Virus record (IMG/VR): IMGVR_UViG_3300044620_001243
Source: a virus
DNA length: 64,000 nucleotides
Strand: one strand, 5' to 3'
Part shown: positions 34,453 to 64,000 of the stretch, one piece after another
Layout: each line of letters opens with the position of its first letter
How positions within the stretch are numbered: position 1 is the first letter of the stretch
Notes under the pieces: generated by a model
What the model was told of the DNA's origin: nothing
Databases searched by the model: none
The model's input: the letters and a program-made list of their open reading frames with translations, nothing else
Translations under genes and position numbers: made by a program

Positions 34453-34719
34453 AAACTAAACACTAAACCTATGAAAGACGGACAAACAATCGGCCAATGG
34501 CTGAACTGGGACTTTGAGGACAATGGTAACCTTAATGTTAAAGACAAGAATGGCAATCTCATCTACCAAGAATCTCCAAGTGGCTTTTGGGATAGGCGCG
34601 AATTTAATTCGAATGGCTTTGTCATCTACTATGAAAATTCAGATGGTGTCATTACTGACAACCGCACTCCCGAAATCATCGAACACAACGGACGCAAATA
34701 CCAATTAATTCCTAACTAA
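34447..34719 (+). CDS. hypothetical protein
   Basis: 90-aa ORF. Confidence 0.3.
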   Translation: MNKLNTKPMKDGQTIGQWLNWDFEDNGNLNVKDKNGNLIYQESPSGFWDRREFNSNGFVIYYENSDGVITDNRTPEIIEHNGRKYQLIPN

Positions 34720-34725
34720 AACAAA

Positions 34726-35382: not shown

Positions 35383-35783
35383 AAATTATGAAAAATCTAA
35401 TATTATTAAGGGGTTTACCTGGTTCGGGAAAATCGACAGTCGCAAAAATGTTGGTCAACAAAGACTACTGTCATAAAGAAGCAGATATGTTTTTCGTCGA
35501 CAGAGAAGGCAACTATAAGTTCGAGCCGTCGAAAATCAAAGACGCACACGCTTGGTGCCAAGAAGAAGTTGAGTTCTTGTTGAGACTCGAACACACGCCG
35601 GTGGTTGTTTCCAACACATTCACACAAGAATGGGAGATGGAAGCTTATTATAAGTTGGCCAAAGATTACGGTTACACAGTTTTCTCATTGATTGTTGAAA
35701 ACCGACACGGCGGAAGGAATATTCACGGTGTTCCTGATGATAAGTTAGAAATTATGAAAAACAGATTTGAAATAAAATTATGA
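35379..35783 (+). CDS. P-loop polynucleotide kinase-like protein
   Basis: Walker A LRGLPGSGKST. 134 aa. ATGA overlap with the phosphatase gene. Confidence 0.55.
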   Translation: MKIMKNLILLRGLPGSGKSTVAKMLVNKDYCHKEADMFFVDREGNYKFEPSKIKDAHAWCQEEVEFLLRLEHTPVVVSNTFTQEWEMEAYYKLAKDYGYTVFSLIVENRHGGRNIHGVPDDKLEIMKNRFEIKL

Positions 35784-38032: not shown

Positions 38033-38380
38033 TGAAATATGAATAAAATTAAATTTTACAGGGATTCTCATAGCATTTCCCGAGATATGTATGAACATAT
38101 TAATGACCCATCTTTGGTAGATGAATTAGATAAATGGGAATCGGTTCGATATAGAATGAGTGATGAAGGAATTGAATATTGTTTTAAACATTATTCTACT
38201 TTTAGTGAAATTGAAGATGAACAATTCCATTCAAAACGTGAAAAACTAATTGAACTGATGGTAGACATAGAAGAATATGTCCAAAATAAAATCACAGAAA
38301 TAAAAGACGAAATAACCAAACTAACAGAAGATGAATAAAATCGAAAAAGCAATTTACGACACAAAACTCCATATTGAAAA

Positions 38381-38418
38381 GTTGGAAAATCAAAATTTAC
38401 TTCGTATATTTACACCAT
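38381..38418 (+). promoter_or_regulatory. Bacteroidetes-type promoter (TTGG-N20-TATATTTA; extended TTCGTATATTTACACCAT)
   Basis: The -7 box TAnnTTTG-like at 38405-38412, 19-25 nt upstream of ATG 38431. Confidence 0.5.
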
Positions 38419-38670
38419 AATTAAATCTCTATGAAATACATTCTCCACAAAACACTCATACTTGTCATGTTTGCATTATTTTGCTCCGAAGTATTGAAAA
38501 TATGCTTCGGATTAATGAACCAACCATCCACACTTCAATTCCTAACGGGCGTTGCAGTACTGATGACAGGAATTTATGGTTCTTTTTACTTTGTAAAATG
38601 GCTTATCAATTACCCAACTTCAAAAACCAAAAATAACTCTCAAAATCAAAACAATTAAAAAACAAAAAAA

Positions 38671-39525
38671 ATGAATCAGAAAAACTTAATTATTCTCGGA
38701 GTTGCCGCCTTTATCTTAGGCCTCTTCTCTATGACCAGCTGTGAAATAATCGACGCTGGTCACGTTGGTGTTAAAGTCAATCTTTACGGCGACGGAAAAG
38801 GTATTGACGATGTGACCGAAGTCAATGGCAGGGTATTCTACAACCCCTTTACCACAAAAATTGTTGAATTTCCAACTTTTATCCAGCACAAAGAATACAA
38901 ACACAACGGAGAAGACAATCCCGATGAATCTTTTGTGGTCAACTCAAAAGATGGGTCAGAGTTTCATGTATCTCCATTATTGAACTATTCAGTCAAGAGG
39001 GAAAGAGTTCCTTATATTTTCGGTAAGTACCGAGTTACTCTGGATGAAATCGAATCTGGTTTCTTAAAAACAGCAGTCTATGATGCCTTTCGTGTTGTCG
39101 CAAATTCATACACCGCAGATGAATTGATTTCAAATCGTGAACAGTTCGAAGTAAAGGTTCGTAAGGTTTTGGTAACCCATCTCTTACCCGAAGGATTCAT
39201 ACTAGCACAATTTACATCTAATCTTGTCTATCCCGAAACATTCAAGAAAGCCATTGAAGCTAAGAACAATGCGGTTCAATCAGCACTCACCGCAGAGAAC
39301 AGAGTAAAACAAGCGGAGGCCGAGGCAAAAATCAAAATTGCACAAGCCGAAGGTAATGCTCAAGCAATGCTGACTTCGGCCAAGGCAGAAGCGGAGTCAA
39401 ACAGGATGAAACAACAAACCATTACACCTATGCTTCTACAACTTGAGTACATCAAGAAATGGAACGGAGTTGAACCCACAACACAATTGTGTTCAGGGTC
39501 AAATATGATGTATAACATAAAATAG
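38671..39525 (+). CDS. SPFH/band-7 (prohibitin-like) lipoprotein
   Basis: Lipoprotein signal (…FSMTSC), a band-7 core and an Ala/Glu-rich coiled-coil C-terminus. Confidence 0.7.
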   Translation: MNQKNLIILGVAAFILGLFSMTSCEIIDAGHVGVKVNLYGDGKGIDDVTEVNGRVFYNPFTTKIVEFPTFIQHKEYKHNGEDNPDESFVVNSKDGSEFHVSPLLNYSVKRERVPYIFGKYRVTLDEIESGFLKTAVYDAFRVVANSYTADELISNREQFEVKVRKVLVTHLLPEGFILAQFTSNLVYPETFKKAIEAKNNAVQSALTAENRVKQAEAEAKIKIAQAEGNAQAMLTSAKAEAESNRMKQQTITPMLLQLEYIKKWNGVEPTTQLCSGSNMMYNIK

Positions 39526-39550
39526 AAATTAAAAGAGAAATGTTTAAAGA

Positions 39551-39577
39551 GGGAAGAATTGTCTTCCCTTTTTTTTG
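39551..39577 (+). terminator. rho-independent terminator
   Basis: GGGAAGA-ATTG-TCTTCCC hairpin followed by T9. Confidence 0.8.
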
Positions 39578-39613
39578 TTTGGTATTTTAAAATTTATTTC
39601 GTATATTTACACT
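39578..39613 (+). promoter_or_regulatory. Bacteroidetes-type promoter (TTTG-N20-TATATTTA; extended TTCGTATATTTACACTAT)
   Basis: Sits just after the terminator and just before ATG 39614. Confidence 0.5.
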
Positions 39614-40333
39614 ATGAAAACCGTATTCATCGGCGATATTCACGGACGTTCCATTTGGAAAGAAATTGTAGAACAGGAAAAACCTGATAGGGTTATTTTT
39701 GTCGGAGACTATTTCGACTCACTTGATATTCCAGGTATTGACCAAATTCATAATTTTAAAGAAATCATTCACCACAAAAAAACAAGTGGAATTGAGGTTG
39801 TACTGTTGGTAGGTAATCACGATTATCATTATATGGATATGGGTGAAACTTACAGTGGATTTCAACCTGCTCTAAAATTTGATATTGGGCAGTTACTCAA
39901 AGAAAATATGGAACATTTACAAATGGCACATTCATTTGATAATTTCCTTTGCACCCACGCTGGTGTATCTTCGGTGTTTATGAATGATAATTTTAGAGAT
40001 AGTTGGGATTGCGATAATTTAGTTGAAAAACTGAATGAAACATTTAAATATTCTCCATTCATTTTTAAGTTCAATGGTTTTAATCCATATGGGGATAATG
40101 AAACACAATCACCTATTTGGATTAGGTTGAATTCATTGAGAAGTTCAAATAACAAACGAGGTAAAGATGGAATTAAAAAGCAATTTATTCAAGTGTTTGG
40201 ACACACCCAAGTTAAAGAAATTGATTTGGTTGGAATGGCGAAATTTTTAGGTGGTAGATATATTATGATTGATGCTTTACCATCCCGTCAATACCTAATT
40301 TACAATGGAGAAATTAAAGTAGGAAAAGTGTAA
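39614..40333 (+). CDS. Ser/Thr protein phosphatase-family metallophosphoesterase
   Basis: VFIGDIHGR, FVGDYFD and GNHD. Start moved to the ATG at 39614, downstream of the promoter box. Confidence 0.7.
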   Translation: MKTVFIGDIHGRSIWKEIVEQEKPDRVIFVGDYFDSLDIPGIDQIHNFKEIIHHKKTSGIEVVLLVGNHDYHYMDMGETYSGFQPALKFDIGQLLKENMEHLQMAHSFDNFLCTHAGVSSVFMNDNFRDSWDCDNLVEKLNETFKYSPFIFKFNGFNPYGDNETQSPIWIRLNSLRSSNNKRGKDGIKKQFIQVFGHTQVKEIDLVGMAKFLGGRYIMIDALPSRQYLIYNGEIKVGKV

Positions 40334-41579: not shown

Positions 41580-41587
41580 GTGGAATA

Positions 41588-41725
41588 GTCAGATGGCGAA
41601 ATGTAGCCGCTATTTGGGTAAAACAGTTTAACACGAGACGCGAACCTCACACAAAGCCTGATAATAACCAAATGAAAGTGCGAAGTACAGTAACACTTAT
41701 ACGGGTTCGACTCCCGTTCTGACTG
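41588..41725 (+). tRNA. diverged tRNA-like unit (acceptor AGTCAGA/TCTGACT, T-arm ACGGGTTCGACTCCCGT; non-canonical core)
   Basis: Same architecture as the 44.8-48.2 kb family but diverged in sequence. No canonical anticodon arm was found. Confidence 0.4.
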
Positions 41726-44411: not shown

Positions 44412-44603
44412 GAAATACCACGGTTTATTGGATAAAATTATGCAACCAAAAGAATCAAAAACAAATACCCATTTTCAATTAAGTTTGATAAAATCTCTTT
44501 TAAGGATATTAGGATGTATTTATCTATTCTTTGGGTGTACAAGTATGTTTGTAATTATTTTCATATTTGCAGAAATTCTTGGAATTTTAGAAGAAATTTT
44601 GTA

Positions 44604-44627
44604 GTTTGAATTTTTTTTCGTATATTT
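44604..44627 (+). promoter_or_regulatory. promoter box TTTG…CGTATATTTG upstream of tRNA-Met
   Basis: An exact TAnnTTTG -7 consensus. Confidence 0.45.
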
Positions 44628-44653
44628 GTATTCTGAATATGAAAATAAACAAT

Positions 44654-44791: not shown

Positions 44792-44901
44792 AGTCAGGTG
44801 GCGGAATTGGTAGACGCAAGTGAGAATAGTAATTGCGCTGATGTAGCGGCAGATGCAGTAAGTTATTATTCATACAGGTTCGAGTCCTGTCCTGACTACC
44901 A
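44792..44901 (+). tRNA. tRNA-like unit 1 (Leu-type scaffold, 56-nt variable core, CCA encoded)
   Basis: 5' AGTCAGGTGGCGGAATTGGTAGACGC … ACAGGTTCGAGTCCTGTCCTGACTACCA 3'. Acceptor strands are complementary. No canonical anticodon arm was found. Confidence 0.5.
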
Positions 44902-44992
44902 AAGAAACAAGTAAAACGCAAACGCACAGTCCCTTGATGCATCAGGTGAGGCGCACACTGTATACTGGATGACCTCTGTTTCTTTTTTAATC
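44902..44992 (+). repeat. 91-nt spacer, identical copy at 45370-45460
   Basis: Exact duplicate following the two CCA-encoding units 1 and 3. It contains an AGAAACA…TGTTTCT helix followed by a T-run (terminator-like). Confidence 0.7.
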
Positions 44993-45101
44993 AGTCAGGT
45001 GGCGGAATTGGATAGACGCATTGAGGAATCTAAACTTGGTAGCATTTGTTAGATTTAATAGTAATCCTCCTTCCTTACAGGTTCGACTCCTGTCCTGACT
45101 A
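44993..45101 (+). tRNA. tRNA-like unit 2 (variable core 57 nt)
   Basis: Same conserved flanks. The core has a GAGGA…TCCTC stem enclosing 37 nt. Confidence 0.5.
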
Positions 45102-45267
45102 CGACAGTTAGCAGATAATACTTGGTAGTTCTTGTAACGTCTGACTATGCGTGAGGTGGTTTTATAACTTTCCACCAGCTGGTCCAAAACTAAAAGTTAA
45201 TACAGGTTTAATAACGGGGTGAAGGAAAGTCTAACTAACAAGTACTTCACTACCTACTGTAAAAATT

Positions 45268-45369
45268 AGTCAGGTGACGAAATTGGTAGACGTGCCACGA
45301 ATAAAACTAAGTGGTGGAGAAACAGCTTTCAGGCACTCCATACAGGTTCGAGTCCTGTCCTGACTACCA
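45268..45369 (+). tRNA. tRNA-like unit 3 (CCA encoded; compensatory D-stem A10:T25)
   Basis: D-stem ACG/CGT versus GCG/CGC in the other units. Followed by the same 91-nt spacer as unit 1. Confidence 0.5.
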
Positions 45370-45460
45370 AAGAAACAAGTAAAACGCAAACGCACAGTCC
45401 CTTGATGCATCAGGTGAGGCGCACACTGTATACTGGATGACCTCTGTTTCTTTTTTAATC

Positions 45461-45558
45461 AGTCAGGTGGCGGAATGGTAGACGCACTGGACAGGCGATG
45501 CATTTAAAACAGAAATAAGCCCAGTCGGTACTTACAGGTTCGAATCCTGTCCTGACTA
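45461..45558 (+). tRNA. tRNA-like unit 4
   Basis: Conserved flanks. The core has an ACTGG…CCAGT stem with a 30-nt loop. Confidence 0.5.
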
Positions 45559-45926
45559 CAAATCTTAGGAGTAATTAACCTAAGACTGAGAGGTTCGAAA
45601 CTCTCGATTGGCTATGGTGTAATGGGCACAGAGAAACGGAGTACGAAAGGGGTTACGGGAATTTTCCCGCAAACATCAGAAACGGGACTCAGGATTATGG
45701 TTCGAATCCATATTAGTCAACAAGCCGTCTTTTTTTCTTGTCCGCCGTGGACGTGGATTGTTGAGACGTAAAAGTAACAATCGATTGATTAGAGAACGGT
45801 AGGATACAGGTTCACTAGACGAAGGTAGAAGTTTTTTTTTGATAGATGGGTTTGAGTTCTTTATAACAACAAACCAACTATAATTCAGTAGGGACAAATG
45901 GGAGCGGCTTACTCCAGTCCCGAAAT

Positions 45927-46085
45927 AGTCAGGTGGCGGAATTGGTAGACGCTATGAAATCATGTTTTAAGATTGAACGGGTAGGCAGACGTAACATATA
46001 GGTAAAAGAGTGTTATCGCCGAATACACTTATAAGGGTCCTATGAAAAAACTTCAATCATACAGGTTCAAGTCCTGTCCTGACTA
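45927..46085 (+). tRNA. tRNA-like unit 5 (110-nt core)
   Basis: Conserved flanks with T-arm ACAGGTTCAAGTCCTGT. The very long core suggests an insertion or intron. Confidence 0.45.
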
Positions 46086-46328
46086 CACGTTCCGAAACAG
46101 ACAACGGATAGTTCCACTATGAACGATGAGAAACAGGGTGATGTCCTGTATTAGTTATCGCCTCCCGAATGCGGTCGGGATAGGTTGACCACCTAAACAT
46201 CAGCAATGTGAACGGTCTATTTCTAACTCACCTACGTTTGTAAGACAACATAGAAGTGACGAGACGGGAAACTCGTCGTGAGGACATCCAAGACACCTGT
46301 AAGTTGGATAAATTAGGGTGTTATTTTT

Positions 46329-46451
46329 AGTCAGGTGTGGGTAAAAATGCGCTAACTGGAAACCCACTGAAAGCGAAAGCAAAGTCGAGGTCTAAATGCG
46401 CACTATGGCCGAGGTAATGGCGAGATACAGGTTCAAGTCCTGTCCTGACTA
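46329..46451 (+). tRNA. tRNA-like unit 6 (altered D region)
   Basis: Acceptor AGTCAGG/CCTGACT and T-arm conserved. The D region is replaced by TGGG…CCCA. Confidence 0.4.
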
Positions 46452-46596
46452 CAAAGACAATGGTTTTCCCCATTCAACGGATGTCGACAATCCAGAATGG
46501 AATCGGAATTCAGCACCCTCAGCCGAGGCGCCTCGTAAAACTACGATTAAGCTGTTAAGATTGGAGCGAGACGGGTACTCCATCATTGTCTTATTT

Positions 46597-46668
46597 GGTC
46601 GGTTCATCTAGAGGTTAGGATACAAGATTTTCATTCTTGTCACATGGGTTCGATTCCCATACCGACTA
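46597..46668 (+). tRNA. tRNA-Glu (TTC)
   Basis: Clean cloverleaf. Acceptor GGTCGGT/ACCGACT, D GGAT-loop-ATCT, anticodon stem CAAGA/TCTTG with loop TTTTCAT, T-arm ATGGG-TTCGATT-CCCAT. 72 nt. Confidence 0.8.
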
Positions 46669-46833
46669 CCTTGGAGGTATAGGGGTAAACCCTTGAGGCG
46701 AAGTACAAGCCATAGTCACTGAACTTAAACTGACCTCCAACCAAATTAGAAGTGTCGCAATACGCGTTTCAATCTAATTGATAGACGTATCAATGAAGAT
46801 GTTCGAGGGTGAAAATCCCAAGCTTCTAATCCT

Positions 46834-46938
46834 CCATTCTTAGTGTTATGTGGTTAAAACACGTTAACTCTTACATCGCCTGATTAGCGCTAATCCGAAT
46901 GTAAGACGAGTAAGTTGGTTCGAATCCAACAGAATGGA
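46834..46938 (+). tRNA. tRNA-like gene with distinct acceptor (CCATTCT/AGAATGG), canonical D and T arms, and a 26-nt insertion inside a TCTTAC/GTAAGA helix (possible intron-containing tRNA)
   Basis: D-arm GTGT-loop-ACAC and T-arm GTTGG-TTCGAAT-CCAAC. The core is too long for a type I tRNA and the anticodon is unresolved. Confidence 0.45.
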
Positions 46939-47216
46939 CAATGAGTAAGAGATACTCAGAGTCTTTGGTCTAAGACTTAAACAATAGACTCGCAGAATGT
47001 CTACGGCGTGAGTGGGACATCATGGGAACAAAGAAGAGTCACACACCTTCTCCCAGTAGTGTTGACAGGTTTTTATGTGGTAAGACACTAATGAAAAAGA
47101 CTCGTTCTATGGGGTACTTATCTGGAGTATCAAACAAGTGTGAGTGATATGGTTCTCGAACAGACAGAGAAACCCGTTAAAATCTACCCGTCTGGAATCT
47201 CAGGATGGGGAAACAT

Positions 47217-47319
47217 AGTCAGGTGGCGGAGTGGGCTAACGCTAACTTGGAAGAGTCTGAGGAGTGGTAACCAAGTACCTATACTCTGATGACCGCAGGT
47301 TCGAATCCTGTCCTGACTA
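47217..47319 (+). tRNA. tRNA-like unit 7
   Basis: Conserved flanks (D-loop variant AGTGGGCTAA, T-stem GCAGG). The core has a CTTGG…CCAAG stem. Confidence 0.45.
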
Positions 47320-47337
47320 CAAAAATAAATTAAAATT

Positions 47338-47598
47338 ATGTTTATAGAAAGATTTTTTAACCCCTATGTGTCATCTCACGAAAGGGTATTATATGAGAAT
47401 AAAGAAGCAATTGAACATTGTTTGAAATATCATACATGGATTAGACATTATTCATTTGAAGGTGATGAATATATCAAAAATGTTAATGGTAAATTAGTTT
47501 GGAATGATGGTAGTAAAGTTGATAAAAGAAAATTACCTAAAAAAGGAAAAGGATGGGGCAGATATTCAAGTGAACTTTATAATTTGTGTTCTTTTTAA
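47338..47598 (+). CDS. small hypothetical protein embedded in tRNA island
   Basis: 86-aa ORF that exactly fills the gap between units 7 and 8. Confidence 0.35.
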   Translation: MFIERFFNPYVSSHERVLYENKEAIEHCLKYHTWIRHYSFEGDEYIKNVNGKLVWNDGSKVDKRKLPKKGKGWGRYSSELYNLCSF

Positions 47599-47605
47599 AT
47601 TAAAT

Positions 47606-47751
47606 AGTCAGGTGGCGGAATTGGTTAGACGCTGTAAAAGTAAGATATGGGAATTGTGCACTCGGTAAACCTACGCACAAGGCTTAGATAGTTGTGCAAC
47701 AGCGGAAAGTCTTACAAAACTATCTTACAGGTTCGAATCCTGTCCTGACTG
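47606..47751 (+). tRNA. tRNA-like unit 8 (95-nt core closed by 8-bp GTAAGATA/TATCTTAC helix; discriminator G)
   Basis: Conserved flanks. The self-contained closing helix suggests an inserted element or intron. Confidence 0.45.
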
Positions 47752-47906
47752 CAAAATTAAAGATATGTTTAGAACATTAAATTATATTTGGAAATTGTTT
47801 TGGAAAAGACCTAGTAGAAGAGTATTTTTTATATTTTTTAGAATGCTAAAAACGGAAATTAAGTGTTTAATGTTGACTGGATACTCAACAGATGAATTAC
47901 TAAATT

Positions 47907-48033
47907 AGTCAGGTGGCGGAATTGGTAGACGCACGATTTATTGTTTAACGATGTGGCTCAATGTCCTAATGGATGAGAGAAAATAAACAGAGAAATATAC
48001 CACATACAGGTTCGAATCCTGTCCTGACTACCA
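47907..48033 (+). tRNA. tRNA-like unit 9 (CCA encoded)
   Basis: Conserved flanks with a 73-nt core. Confidence 0.45.
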
Positions 48034-48085
48034 AGTTAACCCACTAAGACTAGAAACGGGTGACACCTCGGAAAGACGAGGACAT

Positions 48086-48170
48086 AGTCAGGTGGCGGAA
48101 TGGATAGACGCGGCCCTATCAGGGGTAGAGGCGAAAGAAACTCATACAGGTTCGAATCCTGTCCTGACTA
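48086..48170 (+). tRNA. tRNA-like unit 10 (85 nt, type-II length)
   Basis: Conserved flanks. The 34-nt core forms CCCT-ATC-AGGG and GAG…CTC minihairpins but no 7-nt anticodon loop. Confidence 0.45.
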
Positions 48171-48278
48171 CACAGTGTTGGCTTCAAGGACCTATTAGGG
48201 AAGTACACTTAAATAAAACAAGAACGGGGAAAACACCGAATCTGCAGATAACGGCGAAGTACCAACGAAAGGTGAAAC

Positions 48279-49001: not shown

Positions 49002-50435
49002 ATGTGTGAATTTTTACCAAAAAGAATGGGTTATAAGTTAGAATTACTTAAAAGTGCGTTAAGTATTGATGGGGTTGAATCAATAGATAATGTGATAAAT
49101 TGGATTTTACTTCAAAATAAATCAACACATATTTCTGTAAATCGTGTTGATTTAATGTCACTTAAAAATTGGTTTTTTTCAAATGACATTCAAAACATAT
49201 ATCATAAAACTGGTAAATTTTTTTCTATTGATGGAATAACAGTTAAAACTAATTGGGGAACTATTAATGAATGGGACCAACCCATTATTAACCAACCTGA
49301 AATAGGGTTTTTAGGGTTTATCACACAAGAAATAAATGGGGTTTTACATTTCTTATTACAAGCTAAGATTGAACCAGGAAACGTAAATTATGTGCAATTA
49401 TCCCCAACTTTACAAGCCACACGTAGTAATTACACTCAAATTCATAGAGGAAATAAACCTTTTTTTCTTGAATATTTTTTAAATGTTAAATCAGAAAACA
49501 TTCTTTTTGACCAGTTACAATCTGAACAAGGTGCTCGTTTTTTGCGAAAACGAAACAGAAACATTATTATTAAAGTTGACGAACCAATAAAGCCACCTTC
49601 TAATTTTATGTGGTTAACTTTAGGTCAACTCAAACTATTAATGAAGATGTCTAATATCGTAAATATGGATACAAGAACAGTAATTTCTGGTATTTTATTT
49701 GACGGTCTTTCTCAATTTAATTATGAACAAATCATGAATGAAAAAGGAATAGTTCCTTCTGATTTGGGTGTTTCATTTTTTAAATCTGCAATTCTTAATG
49801 AAGGGTCTCTTCATAGTATTGAAGAGATAATTACATTTTTAACTAAACACAAAAGTTTTTTTGAAATTTTTATTGAACGAATACCACTTACTCATTTACG
49901 TAAATGGGAAGTCAAATCAGACGAGATTGTACGTCCTGATAATAAATATTTTAAAATTATTGGTGTAAATGTTGAAATTGATAATCGAGAAGTATCTAAT
50001 TGGGACCAACCGATGTTAATGCCATTGCAAGAAGGTATTTGTGCCATGATTGTTAAAAACATAAATGGTGTAATGCATTTTTTAATGTTAGCAAAATTAG
50101 AGTGTGGTAATCATGATATTATTGAATTTGCACCAACTATTCAACACACATCAACTGGCAATGATTTGTCATCTAATTGTCCACCATTTTTAAATTATGT
50201 GCTTGAATCCAATGAAAAACAAATAATTTACGACACTTATCAATCAGAAGAAGGTGGTAGATTTTATCGAGAACAAAATAGGTATCTAATTGTCCTCGCA
50301 GATGAAGATTTTAAAAACGAAGTGCCTGAAAATTATATTTGGATGACATTGTATCAAATTCAAGTTTTTTTAAAATTTAACAATTATATTAATATACAGG
50401 CACGTAGTCTTATCGCGGCTATTTCTTATTTATGA
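49002..50435 (+). CDS. NDP-hexose 2,3-dehydratase-like (two-domain) protein
   Basis: Internal duplication (…EIGFLGFITQEINGVLHFLLQAKIEPGN… and …EGICAMIVKNINGVMHFLMLAKLECGN…), typical of EvaA/TylX3-type 2,3-dehydratases. Confidence 0.55.
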   Translation: MCEFLPKRMGYKLELLKSALSIDGVESIDNVINWILLQNKSTHISVNRVDLMSLKNWFFSNDIQNIYHKTGKFFSIDGITVKTNWGTINEWDQPIINQPEIGFLGFITQEINGVLHFLLQAKIEPGNVNYVQLSPTLQATRSNYTQIHRGNKPFFLEYFLNVKSENILFDQLQSEQGARFLRKRNRNIIIKVDEPIKPPSNFMWLTLGQLKLLMKMSNIVNMDTRTVISGILFDGLSQFNYEQIMNEKGIVPSDLGVSFFKSAILNEGSLHSIEEIITFLTKHKSFFEIFIERIPLTHLRKWEVKSDEIVRPDNKYFKIIGVNVEIDNREVSNWDQPMLMPLQEGICAMIVKNINGVMHFLMLAKLECGNHDIIEFAPTIQHTSTGNDLSSNCPPFLNYVLESNEKQIIYDTYQSEEGGRFYREQNRYLIVLADEDFKNEVPENYIWMTLYQIQVFLKFNNYINIQARSLIAAISYL

Positions 50436-51418
50436 AAAAACGTTTTGTTGTTGGTATCATGGGTTGTGCAAGTATTGCTGAGAGAATGATGATTCCGGCA
50501 ATACAAAATAGTTTGTATTTTGATTTAAAATTAATAGCGAGTAGGTCTCAATCAAAAGCAAAACAATTTGCTCAAAAGTTTAATATTGAGGCGGTAGTTG
50601 GTTATGAGAATTTATTAAACAATCCAAATATAGAAGTCATATATATGCCTCTCCCAACTGGTCTTCATTTAGAATGGGCAATAAAAACATTAAATGCGGG
50701 AAAACATTTACTTATAGAAAAATCATTAGCAAATAATTACGAAGAAACTAAAACGATAGTATCTTTAGCAAAAAAGAAAGGACTTCTTGTTATGGAAAAT
50801 TTTATGTTTCAGTATCACAGTCAGATGGGTGAATTAAGTAAATTATTAGATTCACATGTAATAGGTGATATTCGTTCTGTACATATTAGTTTTGGATTCC
50901 CACCATTCAAAGATTCCTCTAATATTCGTTACTCTCATGAGCTTGGGGGTGGGTCGTTACTTGATGCGGGGTCATATACATTGAAAATCGCTCAATTATT
51001 ACCTGTAGGTAAATTAAAAATTCAAGGAGCCAGTTTAGTTCAATCAAGAACCCATGGTGTTGATATTTCAGGAGAATGTTTTCTAACTACTAATCAAGGT
51101 ATAGGAATACACACTTCTTTTGGATTTCAACACTATTATCAGTGTAAATTAGAAATATGGGGTAGTCAAGGTAAAATCATCGCTCATCGTATTTTTACCG
51201 CTGGTCCGAATGTGATTCCTAAAATTGAAGTTGAAACAGAAAAAAAAACCATTCAAATATCTACTTCCGCAGATAATCACTTTATAAATCTATTGTCTCA
51301 TTTTGGAAATTGCTTACAACAAATGGATTTTATTGAGTCTGAATATCAATTACTTTTACAACAATCGTATTTATTGGAGGAATTAAGGTTAAAAGCCGAA
51401 ATTTTTTATCAAAATTGA
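50432..51418 (+). CDS. Gfo/Idh/MocA-family NAD(P)-dependent oxidoreductase
   Basis: N-terminal Rossmann fold (VVGIMGCASIAERM) and EKP-like (LIEKSLA). ATGA overlap with the dehydratase. Fits a 3-ketoreductase partner. Confidence 0.7.
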   Translation: MKKRFVVGIMGCASIAERMMIPAIQNSLYFDLKLIASRSQSKAKQFAQKFNIEAVVGYENLLNNPNIEVIYMPLPTGLHLEWAIKTLNAGKHLLIEKSLANNYEETKTIVSLAKKKGLLVMENFMFQYHSQMGELSKLLDSHVIGDIRSVHISFGFPPFKDSSNIRYSHELGGGSLLDAGSYTLKIAQLLPVGKLKIQGASLVQSRTHGVDISGECFLTTNQGIGIHTSFGFQHYYQCKLEIWGSQGKIIAHRIFTAGPNVIPKIEVETEKKTIQISTSADNHFINLLSHFGNCLQQMDFIESEYQLLLQQSYLLEELRLKAEIFYQN

Positions 51419-53524: not shown

Positions 53525-54256
53525 ATGGATAAAGATAAATTAAAAAATATCATTACCAGAATTGGTCAAATAAATCCAAAATATGAATTGGAAAATATTC
53601 TGCCTCAATCGCCAAAATTAATTAAATTAATGCCTAAATTAATTCAACTCATGGGTGACCCATTAGAAGATGCTCAATTGGCTGCAGTTAAAAAAGATGG
53701 TTTAACAATCGAATATATCGTTAAAGGTGGAATCACCCCATCAGAAGATGTTCAATTGGCTGCAGTTAACGAAAATGGTTATGCAATCCAATATATCATT
53801 AATGGTGGAATCGTCCCATCAGAAGGTGTTCAATTGGCTGCAGTTAACAAAAAGGGTTATGCAATCTCAAATATCATTAAAGGTGGAATCGTCCCATCAG
53901 AAGATGTTCAATTGGCCGCAGTTAACGAAGAGGGTTATGCAATAGGATATATCATTGATGGTGGAATCGTCCCATCAGAAGGTGTTCAATTGGCCGCAGT
54001 TAATAATAATGGTTATGCAATCCAACATATCATTAATGGTGGAATCGTTCCATCAGAAGGTGTTCAATTGGCCGCAGTTAACAAAAAGGGTTTATCAATC
54101 GAATATATCATTGATGCCGGAATCATTCCATCAGAAGATGTTCAATTTGGAGCAGTTAATTATAATGGTTTATCAATCCAATATATCATTGATGCTGGAA
54201 TCACCCCATCAGAACGTGTAAAAGAACTTGCTCGTTCCAAGGGTGTTCAAATATAA
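53525..54256 (+). CDS. DUF4116-like repeat protein (paralog 1 of 3)
   Basis: N-terminus MDKDKLKNIITRIGQINPKYELENI, then about eight 24-aa repeats (GI(T/V)PSEDVQLAAVNxNGYAIQYII). C-terminus SERVKELARSKGV. Confidence 0.5.
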   Translation: MDKDKLKNIITRIGQINPKYELENILPQSPKLIKLMPKLIQLMGDPLEDAQLAAVKKDGLTIEYIVKGGITPSEDVQLAAVNENGYAIQYIINGGIVPSEGVQLAAVNKKGYAISNIIKGGIVPSEDVQLAAVNEEGYAIGYIIDGGIVPSEGVQLAAVNNNGYAIQHIINGGIVPSEGVQLAAVNKKGLSIEYIIDAGIIPSEDVQFGAVNYNGLSIQYIIDAGITPSERVKELARSKGVQI

Positions 54257-54261
54257 ATAAC

Positions 54262-54897
54262 ATGGATAAAGATAAATTAAAAAATATCATTACCAGAATT
54301 GGTCAAATAAATCCAAAATATGAATTGGAAAATATTCTGCCCCAATCACCAAAATTAATTCAATTCATGGATAATCCATCAGAAGATGTTCAATTGGCCG
54401 CAGTTAAAAAAGATGGTTTAACAATCTATTATATCATTGAAGCCGGAATCGTCCCATCTGAAGATGTTCAATTGGCTGCAGTTAATAATAATGGTTCATC
54501 AATCTATCAAATCATATATGATGCTGGAATCACCCCATCAGAAGATGTTCAATTGGTTGCAGTTAAAAAAGTGGGCGACTTAATCTATGATATCATTAAA
54601 GTCGGAATAACCCCATCAGAAGATGTTCAATTGGCTGCGGTTAATAATAATGGTTCATCAATAGGATATATCATTAACGGTGGAATCACCCCATCAGAAG
54701 ATGTTCAATTGGCCGCTGCTAATCAAAATGGTAGGGTAATCCAATATATCATTAAAGCTGGAATCACCCCATCAGAAGATGTTCAATTGGCCGCAGTTAA
54801 TAATAATGGTTATGCAATCCAACATATCATTAACGCCCGAATCACCCCATCAGAACGTGTAAAAGAACTTGCTCGTTCCAAGGGTGTTAATATATAA
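54262..54897 (+). CDS. DUF4116-like repeat protein (paralog 2)
   Basis: The first 100 or so nt are nearly identical to paralog 1. Same repeat and C-terminal block. Confidence 0.5.
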   Translation: MDKDKLKNIITRIGQINPKYELENILPQSPKLIQFMDNPSEDVQLAAVKKDGLTIYYIIEAGIVPSEDVQLAAVNNNGSSIYQIIYDAGITPSEDVQLVAVKKVGDLIYDIIKVGITPSEDVQLAAVNNNGSSIGYIINGGITPSEDVQLAAANQNGRVIQYIIKAGITPSEDVQLAAVNNNGYAIQHIINARITPSERVKELARSKGVNI

Positions 54898-54902
54898 GTT
54901 AT

Positions 54903-55616
54903 ATGGATAAAGATAAATTAAAAAATATCATTACCAGAATTGGTCAAATAAATCCAAAATATGAATTGGAAAATATTGTGCAGCAAGCGCCACAATTAAT
55001 TCAATTCATGGATAATCCATCTGAAGAAATTCAATTGGCCGCGGTTGAAAAAGATGGTAAATATATAAAAAATATTATTGAAAGTGGAATCAAACCATCA
55101 GAAGATGTTCAATGGACAGCTGTTAATCAAGGTGGTCAGTCACTTTATTTTATCCTTGAAGCCGGAATCGTCCCATCTGAAGATGTTCAGTTGGCAGCGG
55201 TTAGAAGTAGAGGTTCGGCAATCCAATTTATCATTGAAGCTGGAATCATTCCATCAGAAGATGTTCAATGGTTTGCGGTTAACGAAAATGGTTATGTAAT
55301 CCAAGATATCATTGATGCCGGAATCACCCCATCAGAACGTGTTCAATTGGCCACAGTTAATTATAATGGTTTGTTAATCAAATATATCATTGATGTCGGA
55401 ATCACCCCATCAGAACGTGTTCAATTGGCTGCTGTTAATCAAAATGGTTTGTCAATCAAAGATATCATTGAAGCCGGAATCGTCCCATCTGAAGATGTTC
55501 AGTTGACTGCAGTTAGAAGTAGAGGTTCGGCAATCCAATTTATCATTTATAATGGTGGAATCAAACCATCAGAACGTGTAAAAGAACTTGCTCGTTCCAA
55601 GGGTATTAATATATAA
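54903..55616 (+). CDS. DUF4116-like repeat protein (paralog 3)
   Basis: Same N- and C-terminal blocks, with the repeats more diverged. Confidence 0.5.
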   Translation: MDKDKLKNIITRIGQINPKYELENIVQQAPQLIQFMDNPSEEIQLAAVEKDGKYIKNIIESGIKPSEDVQWTAVNQGGQSLYFILEAGIVPSEDVQLAAVRSRGSAIQFIIEAGIIPSEDVQWFAVNENGYVIQDIIDAGITPSERVQLATVNYNGLLIKYIIDVGITPSERVQLAAVNQNGLSIKDIIEAGIVPSEDVQLTAVRSRGSAIQFIIYNGGIKPSERVKELARSKGINI

Positions 55617-56830: not shown

Positions 56831-57448
56831 ATGCAAAAAGTTATTTTCTTGGATATTGATGGGGTAATGAACTCACATATTTTCTATGAACAAAGGCATA
56901 GAAAAAGATGGTTGAAATGGAGAACTTATTATTTTTTGATTAGAAGATTTTTGGGGATTAAATCCAAATCCGTGAGTCTTGCTAACCACAAAACACCCAA
57001 ATCCCATTGCACATACCAACACCAATTTAAAAGATTAAAAGAAGAGACTTGTCAGCAAAAATGGAAATGGCTTGCTAATTTCTGCAACGAGACTGGAACT
57101 AAAATTTGTGTATCATCTGTGTGGAGATTTCATTTTGGAAATGAAGAATCGGTTATACCCCTGTGGTGGGAACGAGCACTGATTGATTTGGGTTTCAACG
57201 AAGGAACATTTGTTGGTATCACCGACAGATTGGGAATGAGAGGAGAAGAAATCAAGGATTGGCTTCAAAAAAATCAGGAAGTTCAGGAATATGCAATTTT
57301 AGATGATGACTCTGATATGCTACCTGAACAGATGGATAAATTTTATCATTGTGATGGATATTTTGGTCTTTCTCCCAATCACTTATATCGTATCCAAAGA
57401 GCCTTCTCGGGTAAAAGTAAATATGGACATTTGAATAAAACCGTATAA
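56831..57448 (+). CDS. HAD-like hydrolase
   Basis: VIFLDIDGVMN (motif I) and ILDDDSD (motif IV-like). Confidence 0.45.
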   Translation: MQKVIFLDIDGVMNSHIFYEQRHRKRWLKWRTYYFLIRRFLGIKSKSVSLANHKTPKSHCTYQHQFKRLKEETCQQKWKWLANFCNETGTKICVSSVWRFHFGNEESVIPLWWERALIDLGFNEGTFVGITDRLGMRGEEIKDWLQKNQEVQEYAILDDDSDMLPEQMDKFYHCDGYFGLSPNHLYRIQRAFSGKSKYGHLNKTV

Positions 57449-60947: not shown

Positions 60948-61015
60948 TATTCCAAGAAATCTTTACCCAGATTTGAATCCTATCTTGACAACAAAAAAAA
61001 CAAAAAACAAAACAA

Positions 61016-61222
61016 ATGAAAAACAAAGTTTGGAACAAAACAGTTATTGCAACTGAAGAACAAAACGTAAGCATTTATCCGACAGATGAGTTTGATGGCA
61101 TTATAGTTGAAACAAAAGAGTTGGACGATAAAACATTAAATGGTAAGTTGTATCTTAACAAAGATGAAATGGAACTGTTGATTCAGAAAATGGTGGAAAT
61201 GATGAATTACGTAAAAAGTTAA
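61016..61222 (+). CDS. small hypothetical protein (leader AAAACAAAACAAATG)
   Basis: 68 aa. Preceded by a degenerate tRNA 3'-half remnant (60978-61003) and the conserved leader. Confidence 0.35.
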   Translation: MKNKVWNKTVIATEEQNVSIYPTDEFDGIIVETKELDDKTLNGKLYLNKDEMELLIQKMVEMMNYVKS

Positions 61223-61412
61223 TCGAATCCTGACTGCAAATCAAATCAACTAAAAACAAAACAAATGAAAAATAAGTTAAAAACAATTTGGCATGATTTT
61301 TGGACTGACCCCCTATACTACATTGTAATTATGTCGTATATTGGTTTGCTTTTAATTATGTTAATAGTTAGTGTGGCTTGGTTTATCCAACCTTTAATAA
61401 AATAACAAAACA

Positions 61413-61501
61413 GTCAGGTGGTGGAATTGGTTAGACCGTCCCCTCCCTTAAGTGGAAGGGGGAGACCGAAAGGTATACAGGTTCGAATCCTGTCCTGACT
61501 A
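61413..61501 (+). tRNA. tRNA-like unit a (89 nt; D-stem shifted with compensatory changes)
   Basis: GGTGG/CCGT D-arm variant. The core folds best as a CTCCCTT/AAGGGGG helix with an AAGTGG loop rather than as an anticodon arm. An alternative reading as tRNA-Leu (CUUAAGU loop) would need a mismatch. Confidence 0.45.
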
Positions 61502-61685
61502 CTAAAAATTAAAGAATTATGAAAATAAAAGTACACTTATTAAGTCAATCTAAACCGATTGAATATGAGGATGTGAAAAACGCATACACAAAAAGCGGTT
61601 TGTATTGTGTCTATCTAAAAAACAATCAAGTACACAAATACCCTTTGTGTAATGTATTTAGAATTGAAGAAGATTATTAAAACAT

Positions 61686-61768
61686 AGTCAGGTGGCGAAA
61701 TTGGATAGACGCTAGGGAAACCTTCCCGAGAATGAAAGTTCATATAGGTTCGAGTCCTGTCCTGACAA
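61686..61768 (+). tRNA. tRNA-like unit b (83 nt; A1:A72 mismatch)
   Basis: 3' acceptor CCTGACA. The core has a GGGAA-ACC-TTCCC minihairpin. Confidence 0.4.
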
Positions 61769-61784
61769 CTAAAAATTAAAGAAT

Positions 61785-61967
61785 ATGGAATGGGTTGAAA
61801 TTAAAAATGGAAAACCAAAAGATGGTAGTTGGGTACTAATTCAAAGTTCTTTGAAGAACGTACCGAAATATGAGGTTTGCTATTATGAAAATGATGAATG
61901 GTACATACCTTCGTATAATGATGTATGTGAAGAGAAACATATTATTAAATGGTCGTACATTGAATAA
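61785..61967 (+). CDS. small hypothetical protein
   Basis: 60 aa, lying between units b and c. Confidence 0.35.
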   Translation: MEWVEIKNGKPKDGSWVLIQSSLKNVPKYEVCYYENDEWYIPSYNDVCEEKHIIKWSYIE

Positions 61968-61973
61968 TCAAAC

Positions 61974-62096
61974 AGTCAGGTGGCGGAATTGGTAGACGTA
62001 TAGAGTAGGGAGTAGCACTCCATTTATGGTAAGGCAAGCAAATAAGACCTAACCCTCTAAGGTAGCACCATACAGGTTCGAATCCTGTCCTGACTA
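61974..62096 (+). tRNA. tRNA-like unit c (123 nt)
   Basis: Conserved flanks (D 3' strand CGT). The core contains GGAGT-AGC-ACTCC. Confidence 0.4.
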
Positions 62097-62115
62097 CAAA
62101 CAAACAAAAAAAAAT

Positions 62116-62322
62116 ATGAGTCAATTTATCAACACAAATCACGCAAACGAAGCGGCAAGAGAAGCCTTTCAGGGTTATAGGAAAGACACAGAAAGAATCA
62201 AACAAATCAGACAGATGTTACAGAATGGTGAATCTGTTAGCAATGAAGATATTCTTTGGTTGTGTCAAAGAGCTCAATCAGGCATACTACAAGAAGAATC
62301 AAGTTGGTATGACCACGGATAA
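62116..62322 (+). CDS. small hypothetical protein
   Basis: 68 aa, after an AAACAAACAAAAAAAAATATG leader. Confidence 0.35.
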   Translation: MSQFINTNHANEAAREAFQGYRKDTERIKQIRQMLQNGESVSNEDILWLCQRAQSGILQEESSWYDHG

Positions 62323-62328
62323 AAATAT

Positions 62329-62435
62329 AGTCAGGTGGCGGAATTGGTAGACGCAATAAGGCATGGAAACATGCGCATCATGACGGATTGGTGATATTAG
62401 CCAAAGTTATACAGGTTCGAATCCTGTCCTGACTA
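62329..62435 (+). tRNA. tRNA-like unit d (107 nt)
   Basis: Conserved flanks. The core contains GCATG-GAAAC-ATGC. Confidence 0.4.
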
Positions 62436-62454
62436 CAATAAAAAAACAAAACAA

Positions 62455-62943
62455 ATGAAACTAAATCAAAACTCACTCTCGGCAAAACTCTATCGTTGGT
62501 TCTATAAAACCGACACAATGCCAACCAACCTATGTCCTTACTTTTGGAAACTGGTCACTGCGGTGATTCTTTCACCTTTGCTTGCAATTCACACCCTACC
62601 CTATGAAATCATCAACTACAAACGTCAGCGTTGGGATACATACAGTGATATGCTCGGAATATCGCTTGTTTGTTGGTGCCTTATCGCTGTTGTTATTTGC
62701 ATGATTTCATCATTGGGTCTTTTCTTTTACATCCCTGATAAGGGTTCATCACTTTGGACAATGATGTCAATCGGTCTTATTTGTTGGGGTACCCTTATCC
62801 TAGTTGGCATTACTTGGGCTATTACTAAAACAGTAGTATACTTAAAATCAAAGAAGAGTGATAATGAAAAGACAGACAACATCATCGTTGAAATGGTGAA
62901 AGCAAAGTATCACAAATACTGCCCTAAAATTGATTGGAAGTAA
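62455..62943 (+). CDS. small integral membrane protein
   Basis: 162 aa with 3-4 TM segments. Leader AAAAACAAAACAAATG. Confidence 0.4.
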   Translation: MKLNQNSLSAKLYRWFYKTDTMPTNLCPYFWKLVTAVILSPLLAIHTLPYEIINYKRQRWDTYSDMLGISLVCWCLIAVVICMISSLGLFFYIPDKGSSLWTMMSIGLICWGTLILVGITWAITKTVVYLKSKKSDNEKTDNIIVEMVKAKYHKYCPKIDWK

Positions 62944-62950
62944 AACAAAT

Positions 62951-63028
62951 AGTCAGGTGGCGGAATGGTAACGCAGCTCGCGGTGTACACAAAGGGGTGA
63001 ATTGCAGGTTCGAATCCTGTCCTGACTA
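62951..63028 (+). tRNA. tRNA-like unit e (78 nt)
   Basis: Conserved flanks (D-loop AATGGTAA, T-stem GCAGG) with a 29-nt core. Confidence 0.4.
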
Positions 63029-63047
63029 CAATAAAAAAACAAAACAA

Positions 63048-63320
63048 ATGAAAAGACTATTTTTATTTCTTCTCAGAAGATACAGCAACACTGAATCACA
63101 ACGAATGGAAATTTACCGTGAGTTGTGGGAAAAAACCAAAGAGGAATATTGGGCACAAACCGCATTTGGAAATGTCTACAATATGAATATTGAGGTTCTA
63201 ATGGCAAATCCATTTTTCGAAAGTAGAGTTAAGTTAGGAGAGGATGAACATTTAAGAATGTTAAAAGCTGGACTATCAGATTCATTTGACGATAGTGTTG
63301 AATATATCCTGAATGGTTGA
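63048..63320 (+). CDS. small hypothetical protein
   Basis: 90 aa starting at ATG 63048 behind the conserved leader. The longer track ORF (62934) would read through the tRNA-like unit. Confidence 0.35.
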   Translation: MKRLFLFLLRRYSNTESQRMEIYRELWEKTKEEYWAQTAFGNVYNMNIEVLMANPFFESRVKLGEDEHLRMLKAGLSDSFDDSVEYILNG

Positions 63321-64000
63321 AAAAATTAATTTACTGTTTCTCTAAATTTAAAAATATGTCAGATTTCAAAGGTAGTAAATTTTTCTTTGGAGATTCGGAA
63401 AATCAAAATTTATTACTTATATTTAGGCCATAATTAAACAAAAAATAAGATGGAAAAACAATTGAATATATCTGATGATAGAAGTAGTAAAATTATATAC
63501 ACAGTTGTACCTTACTTTTCAAATGGATATGAAGTAAATCAAAATGATGTAAAATCTTTCACTGATTTTAAAAAAGCGGAAGAATATACATGGACATTAA
63601 ACTGTCATTTTGATGTGATTGAAAATGAACTTATATAATTTTATTTCATATAACGTCCGCACTTGATTTGAAATTAATTTTAAAACTATGAACGGAAGAA
63701 AATTATACAGAGAGTATGCTCAAAGTAAAGGTAAAGAAGCAAAGGAATTTGTAAAAATAGAAGAAGATTGGTACAACCAAGACACATTAATTACGAAAGA
63801 TAACAAAGGTAATGAAGAACGAACAAGTATTAATTACAAAGACCTTGTGAACTGGATTATACGTACCGTACCCAATGGTGCGTAACGTCCACAAATATGA
63901 GTGGTAAATTTTTCTTTGGAGATTCGGAAAATCAAAATTTATTACTTATATTTGCTGTTAGAAATAGTTAGACATAATTGTTTCTAACGGTTGGGTATAT

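Follow-up and report, generated by a model that had tools for sequence, protein, structure and literature searches.

IMG/VR record IMGVR_UViG_3300044620_001243 contains a 64,000-nt stretch of viral DNA (the window, meaning the whole of this stretch), a phage region with its genes on one strand and a GC content of ~30%. Between 60.9 and 63.3 kb (cluster 2), five tRNA-like units lie on the + strand in strict alternation with small open reading frames (ORFs). All five units begin with AGTCAGG-TG-GCGGAAT(T)GGTAGACGC and end with ACAGGTTCGAATCCTGT-CCTGACT-A, and these ends together make up a tRNA acceptor stem of 7 bp, its D and T arms and the discriminator. The 28–73 nt in the middle are unrelated between units. 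In the following, the constant part is called the chassis and the variable part the insert. With these constant ends and a 3′ motif that occurs 16 times in the window versus 0.01 expected, the five units proposed by an initial annotation of the sequence are real. Each unit starts 5–7 nt after a stop codon and, as had also been proposed, is followed by a small ORF (53, 60, 68, 162 and 90 aa), whose ATG comes 16–19 nt after the unit.

The 90-nt unit at 61412–61501, whose insert consists of a long hairpin and a ACCGAAAGGT hairpin, precedes o53 (61519–61680, 53 aa), which matches phrog_10299, a family of unknown function (E = 5e-28). Copies of this unit with 100, 99 and 97% identity occur in L093, L059 and L065, respectively, in unrelated flanks (L numbers denote other contigs that carry units). 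The next unit (83 nt, 61686–61768) has an insert with two short hairpins and precedes o60 (61785–61967, 60 aa), a cassette that is exchanged between phages and whose exact protein is indexed in 105 blocks of a public collection. The 123-nt unit at 61974–62096 stands before o68b (62116–62322, 68 aa, no family match); a 98%-identical copy is found in L184, there between non-coding spacers of the type described below for cluster 1. Unit 62329–62435 (107 nt), in which nucleotides 5–26 are identical to E. coli tRNA-Leu genes, precedes o162 (62455–62943, 162 aa), a member of a phage membrane-protein family with three transmembrane (TM)-like segments, and a search for an exact match to the insert of unit 62329 elsewhere found none. 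The shortest of the five (78 nt, 62951–63028) precedes o90 (63048–63320, 90 aa) and has a copy with 90% identity in L185. All of these ORFs, and the features of the next paragraph, lie on the + strand.

Upstream of the first unit, two 3′-half remnants of the chassis take the place of complete units. A decayed 3′ half (CAGATTTGAATCCTATCTTGACAAC, 60968–60992, repeat family D1) leads into an A-rich leader and o68a (61016–61222, 68 aa, without TM segments), and a truncated 3′ half (TCGAATCCTG/ACTGC, 61223–61237) adjoins the o68a stop codon and precedes o46 (61265–61405, 46 aa, one TM-like segment), which has a relative with 45% identity in L140. Both remnants were correctly recognized initially: the first agrees with the consensus 3′ half at 20 of 25 positions, and the o68a-to-remnant junction is intact in L135 and L141, where it reads ATCGAATCCTGTCCTGACTGC. 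The counterpart of the first remnant upstream of the 68-aa ORF is a full unit in L022, L135 and L141 (o68a homologues in the latter two with 93–97% amino acid identity), and the unit is absent in L111 and L036. A conserved leader had been described after each unit, which applies to units 62329 and 62951 and to both remnants (exact AACAAAACAAATGAA at 62445, 63038, 61006 and 61255) but not to the remaining three units: 61412 and 61686 have a different leader in common (CTAAAAATTAAAGAAT) and 61974 has a third type, all three A-rich. The longest homology tract between modules is a block of 3′ half, leader and ATGAAA at 62412–62460, repeated exactly at 63005–63053 (family D1). The size range of 46–162 aa quoted for the ORFs after units narrows to 53–162 aa, as the 46-aa ORF and one of the 68-aa ORFs follow remnants, and the statement that several ORFs have TM helices did not hold up, since TM-like segments are present in only two of the seven (o46 and o162). 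For a 235-aa ORF upstream of cluster 2, we found no relatives in viral contigs.

Eleven more copies lie upstream in the window, one diverged (139 nt, 41587–41725, + strand) and ten at 44792–48170 (cluster 1). In the diverged copy, the acceptor stem (AGTCAGA/TCTGACT) and T stem (ACGGG/CCCGT) carry compensatory double changes that preserve pairing. The units of cluster 1, again on the + strand, are located at 44792–44898, 44993–45101, 45268–45366, 45461–45558, 45927–46085, 46329–46451, 47217–47319, 47606–47751, 47907–48030 and 48086–48170; for the insert of the last one we searched for a larger family and found it only in L009. Between these units lie a canonical tRNA-Glu and conserved non-coding spacers; a tRNA-Met just before them opens the cluster and a tRNA-Lys stands just after. 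Ten units and three tRNAs are thereby packed into ~3.7 kb (44.6–48.4 kb) with only two plausible ORFs and a GC content of 39–40% versus ~30% elsewhere in the window. The strict alternation of unit and ORF emphasized by the initial annotation is consequently a property of cluster 2, not of cluster 1, where units are packed with almost no ORFs.

The inter-unit spacers of cluster 1 are non-coding and GC-rich, some with T-arm-like hairpins. One of 94 nt is present twice (44899–44992 and 45367–45460), and others span 45559–45926, 46086–46328, 46939–47216 and 48171–48278. Several are 82–99% conserved in L004, L009, L015, L038, L045, L126 and L184. Like the ORFs, the spacers move as cassettes, and they may be further non-coding RNAs (ncRNAs). 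Cluster 1 also contains an oversized (105 nt) tRNA-like element at 46834–46938 with a chassis that differs from the main family (acceptor CCATTCT/AGAATGG, T arm GTTGG-TTCGAAT-CCAAC). Its lower arm is long and extended and has no anticodon loop, and L009 contains the surrounding region with 96% conservation.

The exact 25-nt 3′ half is found in at least 120 IMG/VR contigs and in 14 contigs of metagenome-assembled genomes (MAGs) among 185,579 species genomes. These 14 contigs look phage-derived; several, of lake and river origin, had been assigned to Chitinophagaceae, Sediminibacterium or Bacteroidota bins. Together, the window and 134 loci (fragments of up to 15 kb, found via an exact or near-exact chassis match) comprise 199 units, 189 of them distinct, with lengths from 69 to ~180 nt; for ~150 of the 189, the insert class was seen only once. 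In an acceptor-agnostic structural scan, 117 of 127 oversized (>95 nt) tRNA-like elements used the chassis or a one-base variant of it, and the ~200 normal-sized tRNAs that adjoin units in these loci have diverse acceptor stems. Among cultured phages, no record carries the chassis: megablast with 20 kb gave no match, and blastn with one unit returned generic T arms only. The window helicase has its closest relatives in phages of Bacteroides, Chryseobacterium and Flavobacterium. Literature searches with the chassis sequence and with keywords turned up no description of the family, and a virome structured-RNA survey mentions tRNA-like candidates. The RNA family is large and, it appears, undescribed. 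An origin as a host tRNA or attP fragment was rejected, as the 25-mer is nearly absent from the 185,579 species genomes and full units with both halves exist.

From a class II tRNA-Leu, the chassis retains the top half and elbow in full (acceptor stem, D arm, T arm and discriminator A73). Where the anticodon and variable arms would be, almost every copy has a structured insert of its own. Unit positions 5–26 (22 nt) match E. coli tRNA-Leu with 100% identity. Of 189 units, 182 (96%) have A73 and 167 have U48, and the D loop with its GG (G18G19-type) is kept across units, as is the T loop TTCGAAT. The E. coli leucyl-tRNA synthetase (LeuRS) needs A73, A15:U48, G18G19 and the tertiary pairs between D and T loop, and it still charges tRNA-Leu variants without anticodon and variable arms (PMC9976931). 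All of the required sequence features are present in the chassis. As it keeps every known bacterial LeuRS identity element, leucylation of the RNAs would be possible.

When left unconstrained, most window copies folded into a frame resembling a cloverleaf, plus one to three additional hairpins. With the frame constrained, one arm formed in 80 of 175 units, two arms in 76 and three arms in 18. The units possess the acceptor stem, D arm, T arm and tertiary positions of a decoding tRNA, but a canonical anticodon arm (5-bp stem and 7-nt loop with U33 and R37, directly after position 26) was found in only one of the 175 units, against 0.05 expected, and in none of the five in cluster 2. Deletion of one contiguous ‘intron’ restored such an arm in one of 166 units, against 0.9 expected, with no intron in the anticodon loop (the classical site 37/38); this test covered class I geometry exhaustively. 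Run in intron mode, ARAGORN ‘finds’ a tRNA in 148 of the 189 units, with introns at arbitrary, non-canonical positions and anticodon loops that lack U33 or have A34. In cluster 2 it calls two of the five units, as ‘Leu-taa’ and ‘Gly-acc’, both with implausible anticodons. The Rfam tRNA model matches four of the five (61412, 62329 and 62951 above the gathering score), and its alignments skip 19–47 nt where the anticodon arm should be. The units are neither decoding tRNAs nor intron-containing tRNAs.

Rfam reports nothing on the units beyond the generic tRNA model, which remained the best match over the transfer-messenger RNA (tmRNA) model in clan competition. A tmRNA was rejected: ARAGORN finds none, pair 3:70 is U-A in all units and there is no tag ORF. 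A Y RNA was likewise rejected, the best match to YrlA (18.5 bits, E = 4.4) falling short of the gathering score of 69, and no Ro60/TROVE protein is encoded in the subset of ~50 window ORFs scanned.

The only unit that passed the anticodon-arm test is a Lys-UUU gene in L033, a 71-nt tRNA-Lys(UUU) on the – strand (1217–1287 in reverse-complement coordinates) with the same acceptor and T-arm chassis. ARAGORN further called a 73-nt tRNA-Ile(UAU)-like gene on the same chassis in L059 (4958–5030). Both genes look like chimeras of chassis and real tRNAs. Another unusual copy, L135 3375–3520, has an insert that matches L009 and L136 and ~35 nt extra within its D loop, so insertions are not limited to the anticodon region.

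Recombination at the chassis is the clearest new result of our comparison. The gene o60 and the adjacent chassis halves show 94–100% nucleotide identity in L136, L137 and L140. The upstream insert, that of unit 61686, is identical in L137–L139, and an unrelated 133-nt unit occupies the same site in L136 and L140; the downstream insert differs from that of the window in L136, L137 and L140, and in the latter two it equals the insert of cluster 1 unit 44993 (96% identity). L184 is a mosaic that contains the 45461 insert, the spacer after 44993, the 61974 insert and the spacer after 45461, with 97–99% identity. In L135 and L141, o68a, the 3′-half remnant and the leader run straight into an o162 homologue, and the window has four extra ORF-plus-unit modules between the o68a remnant and o162. 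Among 59 pairs between contigs with an insert identity of at least 90%, both flanks were common in 20 and different in 39. Conversely, when both 150-nt flanks of a unit were conserved in another contig (115 cases), no empty site was seen, and 92 of these cases had a unit-sized gap, filled by an unrelated insert in 52 (the pairs are not independent of one another). The site upstream of a 215-aa ORF illustrates this well, with flanks 82–95% identical and six inserts in eight contigs, one of which is the window 61412 insert.

These alignments identify the constant chassis halves as the junctions at which ORFs, non-coding spacers and inserts exchange between related phages, with 96–100% identity of the reshuffled parts. 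With junctions internal to the units, the RNA inserts are exchanged independently of ORFs or spacers. The idea of a duplicating cassette of tRNA-like unit plus minigene, put forward initially, thus survives as far as the strong shuffling is concerned, but the junctions inside units and the variable pairing speak against a module of that kind. A fixed unit–ORF pairing is refuted by a criterion of the initial annotation itself, related contigs that carry the ORFs without units. Homologues of o162, for example, occur in 49 loci, ~40 of which have no unit nearby. Overall, 101 ORFs in 76 families (median 75 aa) start just downstream of units and resemble typical accessory phage genes, and only about half of all units have an ORF within 60 nt downstream. 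A separate observation concerns L137–L139, in which both units that flank o60 carry an uncompensated 3′ variant CCTGTACTGAC (G7 opposite A66), a pattern that suggests homogenization of chassis copies within a genome.

Substitutions in the units follow RNA pairing. At position 11:24 of the D stem, 157 units have a C-G pair and 13 a U-A pair, and a T-stem pair is compensated in L102. Pooled over 19 insert families, 17 varying insert pairs were kept (10 with both partners changed and 7 with one) and 2 were broken, compared to 2 kept and 26 broken in a shift-by-one control. Relative to dinucleotide shuffles, the insert folding energy had a mean z of −0.62 (p = 3e-13). Both chassis and inserts are, by these signatures, under RNA-level constraint.

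The sequence context of the unit ends resembles that of tRNA genes. Of 199 units, 162 (81%) have U(-1) and at least 185 (~93%) have C74; CCA is not encoded, and the canonical tRNAs of the window likewise have C74 and no encoded CCA. A Bacteroidota-type promoter motif (TTTG-N17-23-TAnnTTTG) lies at 44598–44628, 26 nt before the tRNA-Met, and another at 41370, upstream of unit 41587. We found no such motif within cluster 1 or cluster 2, the last one before cluster 2 being at 56212, and the sigma-70-like and terminator-like sites in 59–64 kb were not above chance. From this, both clusters look like parts of long precursors that would need endonucleolytic processing. As in mitochondrial punctuation or t-elements, the tRNA-like elements of cluster 2 stand directly between ORFs of what would be one transcription unit.

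An exact 39-nt repeat (TTTGGAGATTCGGAAAATCAAAATTTATTACTTATATTT) at 63386–63424 and 63915–63953 precedes small ORFs after cluster 2, its second copy ending in a TAnnTTTG-type −7 box, and these ORFs seem to have their own promoter-like element in place of a chassis unit. In one phage lineage (L044, L110, L090, L099 and related contigs), a single unit follows 4 nt after a TATATTTG box and lies directly upstream of the 215-aa ORF. In L090, another unit ends 2 nt before the ATG of the terminase large subunit. In these contigs, a late transcript may begin with the unit.

Further upstream, the window encodes a set of candidate RNA repair enzymes: an Rnl1-type RNA ligase (32068–33363), a cREC cyclic-phosphate-processing domain protein (33360–33773), a metallophosphoesterase (34726–35382), a polynucleotide kinase (PNK)-like P-loop kinase (35379–35783) and, closer to cluster 2, a HAD_SAK_2 protein (56831–57448). 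Such heal-and-seal repertoires belong to phages that face tRNA-cleaving defences and serve the repair of tRNA damage (PMC7824862). A defence nuclease that cuts the variable loop of class II tRNA has been described, as has a SegB-driven, recombination-based amplification of phage tRNA loci (PMC13096335). Repair-gene homologues are found near units in ~12 other loci, where they are the most recurrent of the window proteins. T5orf172 nuclease-like ORFs recur in 9 loci, and across loci no endonuclease, recombinase, transposase or integrase was consistently linked to units. Within the window, we identified no segB homologue, and no aminoacyl-tRNA-using enzyme among the ORFs scanned.

The region 31146–40333 also encodes a second metallophosphoesterase, an SPFH/Band-7 protein and MORN-repeat proteins. 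Elsewhere in the window, three tandem paralogous ORFs with DUF4116 repeats (243, 211 and 237 aa) occupy 53525–55616, and their weak matches to the DRTGG and Sen15 families are probably spurious. Genes for sugar-nucleotide metabolism at 49002–51418, 22711–23811 and 28489–29289 encode an NDP-hexose (nucleoside-diphosphate-hexose) 2,3-dehydratase, a GFO/IDH/MocA oxidoreductase, an aminotransferase and a family 2 glycosyltransferase, which might act in modification of DNA or of the cell surface. At 1807–2958 lies an ORF resembling glutamine synthetase, and at 6871–8016 a thymidylate synthase of unusual length (381 aa, matched to a profile of 266 positions).

Our preferred explanation, to which we give about an even chance, is that the units are genes for phage tRNA-like small RNAs, built on one constant chassis with variable inserts. 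They would be transcribed within long polycistronic transcripts, alongside canonical tRNAs and small accessory ORFs. The host RNase P would cut before A1, and RNase Z or exonucleases would form the 3′ end after A73, to be followed by the CCA-adding enzyme, with the release of stable RNAs of 80–160 nt. As a by-product of this excision, the mRNA would be split into monocistronic pieces with short A-rich leaders. It is more speculative that the variable insert is the working part, and the likeliest arena would be the phage–host conflict over tRNAs, for instance with the RNAs as decoys or inhibitors of tRNA-targeting defence nucleases.

A broader proposal, which we consider less likely than not, is that freshwater Bacteroidota phages keep a recombination-shuffled library of hundreds of structured RNA effectors on a leucine-tRNA top half, with integrase-free exchange of cassettes. 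The chassis would provide promoter-independent expression, allow excision by RNase P and RNase Z, stabilize the RNA and perhaps permit leucylation. Such effectors could be decoys, inhibitors or aptamers directed against host tRNA-targeting immunity or translation factors. The chassis halves would serve as homology arms for an integron-like exchange of RNA inserts and small accessory genes.

Several observations weigh against small RNAs with functional inserts. The insert pair counts come from RNAalifold, which favours covarying pairs, and from small families, and they support the case without deciding it; the inserts fold only modestly more stably than shuffles. No shared insert motif was found across units, an Rfam scan of the inserts at relaxed thresholds revealed no known RNA family, and antisense matches of inserts within the window were not above shuffled controls. 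No linked protein family is present in more than 16 of the 135 loci, and the association with repair genes is modest and confounded by phage relatedness. The invariance of the chassis across contigs is in part an ascertainment effect of the exact or near-exact matching by which loci were found. Finally, sites that are always occupied while the insert varies could mean that the chassis, not the insert, is the selected part.

That last point leads to pure punctuation, in which the chassis is only an RNase P/Z signal or a 3′ protector of mRNA and the insert a tolerated filler. RNase P and RNase Z recognize the top half and elbow of tRNA, which is precisely what the units conserve, and the tight spacing to stops and starts, the lack of an internal promoter or terminator signal in cluster 2 and the free variation of the insert at orthologous sites would all follow. 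Yet the same chassis recurs ten times with three tRNAs in the ORF-poor ~3.7 kb of cluster 1, about half of all units have no ORF close downstream, ORF homologues occur without units, and inserts are 90–100% conserved in unrelated contexts, with compensatory changes. Structure alone would also not require a near-invariant acceptor sequence. We consider pure punctuation unlikely as a full account. The RNase P/Z role suggested by the initial annotation is in keeping with the anatomy and with U(-1), A73 and C74 as in the phage's own tRNAs, and, since the same units form an ORF-poor array at 44.6–48.4 kb, it is a plausible by-product or partial function and cannot account for everything. The compensated stems also bear on a selfish or structural DNA repeat, i.e. 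amplified tRNA-Leu derivatives that are kept for recombination or homing of cassettes and have no RNA function. Junctions within the chassis halves, variants homogenized within a genome (CCTGTACTGAC on both sides of o60 in L137–L139), the T5orf172 nuclease-like ORFs in 9 loci and the precedent of SegB-driven amplification of phage tRNA loci (PMC13096335) are compatible with this. A repeat of this kind would not account for the D-stem covariation and the compensated stems of diverged copies, for conserved tertiary-pair positions and A73, or for structurally constrained inserts; the rare Lys-UUU and Ile-UAU members (the former by the strict test, the latter by ARAGORN) argue that the chassis works as a tRNA body, and no endonuclease or recombinase is consistently linked. 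We therefore judge it quite unlikely.

The conserved tertiary positions take on another meaning if the RNAs are leucylated mimics, charged by LeuRS after CCA addition, that act via their aminoacyl end or titrate LeuRS, EF-Tu or the CCA-adding enzyme, with the insert steering the RNA to its target. The full bacterial leucine identity set is kept, and the arms that are dispensable for charging are those replaced. The same features are needed by any L-shaped class II tRNA, however, and may reflect ancestry only; the units do not encode CCA, the window ORFs scanned revealed no enzyme that uses aminoacyl-tRNA, and the identity rules are those of the E. coli LeuRS, from which that of Bacteroidota may differ. 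Charging as the main function is accordingly a doubtful proposition in our eyes. The units could also be transposon- or recombinase-borne, either as cassettes similar to miniature inverted-repeat transposable elements (MITEs) or of an integron/att type, given that TAGTCAGG...CCTGACTA is an inverted terminal repeat of 8 bp that has TA at each end, that the T arm resembles a recombinase core site and that identical units occur in unrelated flanks. Precise empty sites should then exist, but none was seen in the 115 flank-conserved comparisons; no transposase or integrase is linked, and the exchanges are replacements with junctions inside the unit, as homologous recombination predicts. Such mobility is highly improbable, and an integron cassette array as such was rejected, with no recombinase family linked to the units and repeats that are tRNA folds. 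The complete heal-and-seal set in the same window, together with the 148 of 189 units called in ARAGORN intron mode, might point to intron-containing or split tRNAs, from which a nuclease removes the insert and the phage kinase, phosphoesterase and Rnl1 ligase reseal the ends. With an anticodon arm restored no more often than expected (1 of 166 versus 0.9), no intron in the anticodon loop, and the arbitrary positions and aberrant loops of the ARAGORN calls, this explanation is close to refuted.

If expressed, the units would be the first large natural family to use a tRNA body as a generic carrier of many RNA modules, a design at which synthetic biology arrived independently with tRNA scaffolds and tRNA–guide RNA (gRNA) arrays. 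They would also add an RNA layer to the phage–host conflict over tRNAs, beside phage tRNAs and RNA repair enzymes. Short, identical and constrained repeats as recombination linkers may help to explain the mosaicism of accessory genes in phage tRNA regions. In practical terms, annotation tools miss the units or mis-call them as odd tRNAs, and the chassis sequence offers a simple handle for hypervariable, possibly anti-defence loci in viromes.

With class II tRNA-Leu, the units have in common the 7-bp acceptor stem with A73, the 3-bp D stem with a AAUUGGUAGA-type loop, U48 and the TTCGAAT T loop, as well as a location among ordinary phage tRNA genes. They differ in that 174 of 175 have no anticodon stem-loop, in their length of 69 to ~180 nt, in a first pair A1-U72 and in a single acceptor sequence for hundreds of bodies. 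In mitochondrial punctuation and plant mitochondrial t-elements (PMC1920247, PMC3790967), tRNAs or tRNA-like structures also stand between polycistronic ORFs, as possible RNase P/Z sites that would set mRNA ends. The units, in contrast, also form ORF-free arrays, carry conserved variable inserts and act as recombination joints. The SegB-driven amplification likewise concerns tRNA-gene regions that are recombination-prone, amplifiable and tied to anti-defence (PMC13096335), but the copies in the window are old and diversified and not tandem identical amplicons. Integron attC arrays are similar in their small promoter-less ORFs, structured repeats with inversely complementary ends and a variable middle, and shuffled content; they differ from the units, for which no integrase was found, whose exchange resembles homologous recombination and whose repeat is a constrained tRNA fold.

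Among ncRNAs, tmRNA and YrlA also join a tRNA-like module of acceptor, T arm and D loop to other structure, and YrlA is reportedly linked to RNA repair operons (PMC4201824). The units lack the G3:U70 pair and tag ORF of tmRNA, and they differ from YrlA in topology, as both ends of the unit RNA lie in the acceptor stem. The tRNA cluster of phage T4 contains the stable RNAs species 1 and 2, of unknown function, which are processed with the phage tRNAs. Those are two unique RNAs, in contrast to a repeated chassis with variable inserts. In the tRNA-miRNA-encoded RNAs (TMERs) of the gammaherpesvirus MHV68 (murine gammaherpesvirus 68) and in tRNA–gRNA arrays, a tRNA-like module provides an attached RNA with processing and stability. 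There, the attached RNA lies beside the tRNA, whereas the insert of the units replaces the anticodon and variable arms, a replacement also made in the synthetic Ponchon–Dardel scaffold. Compared with TMERs and engineered scaffolds alike, the units are set apart as a bacterial system with hundreds of inserts.

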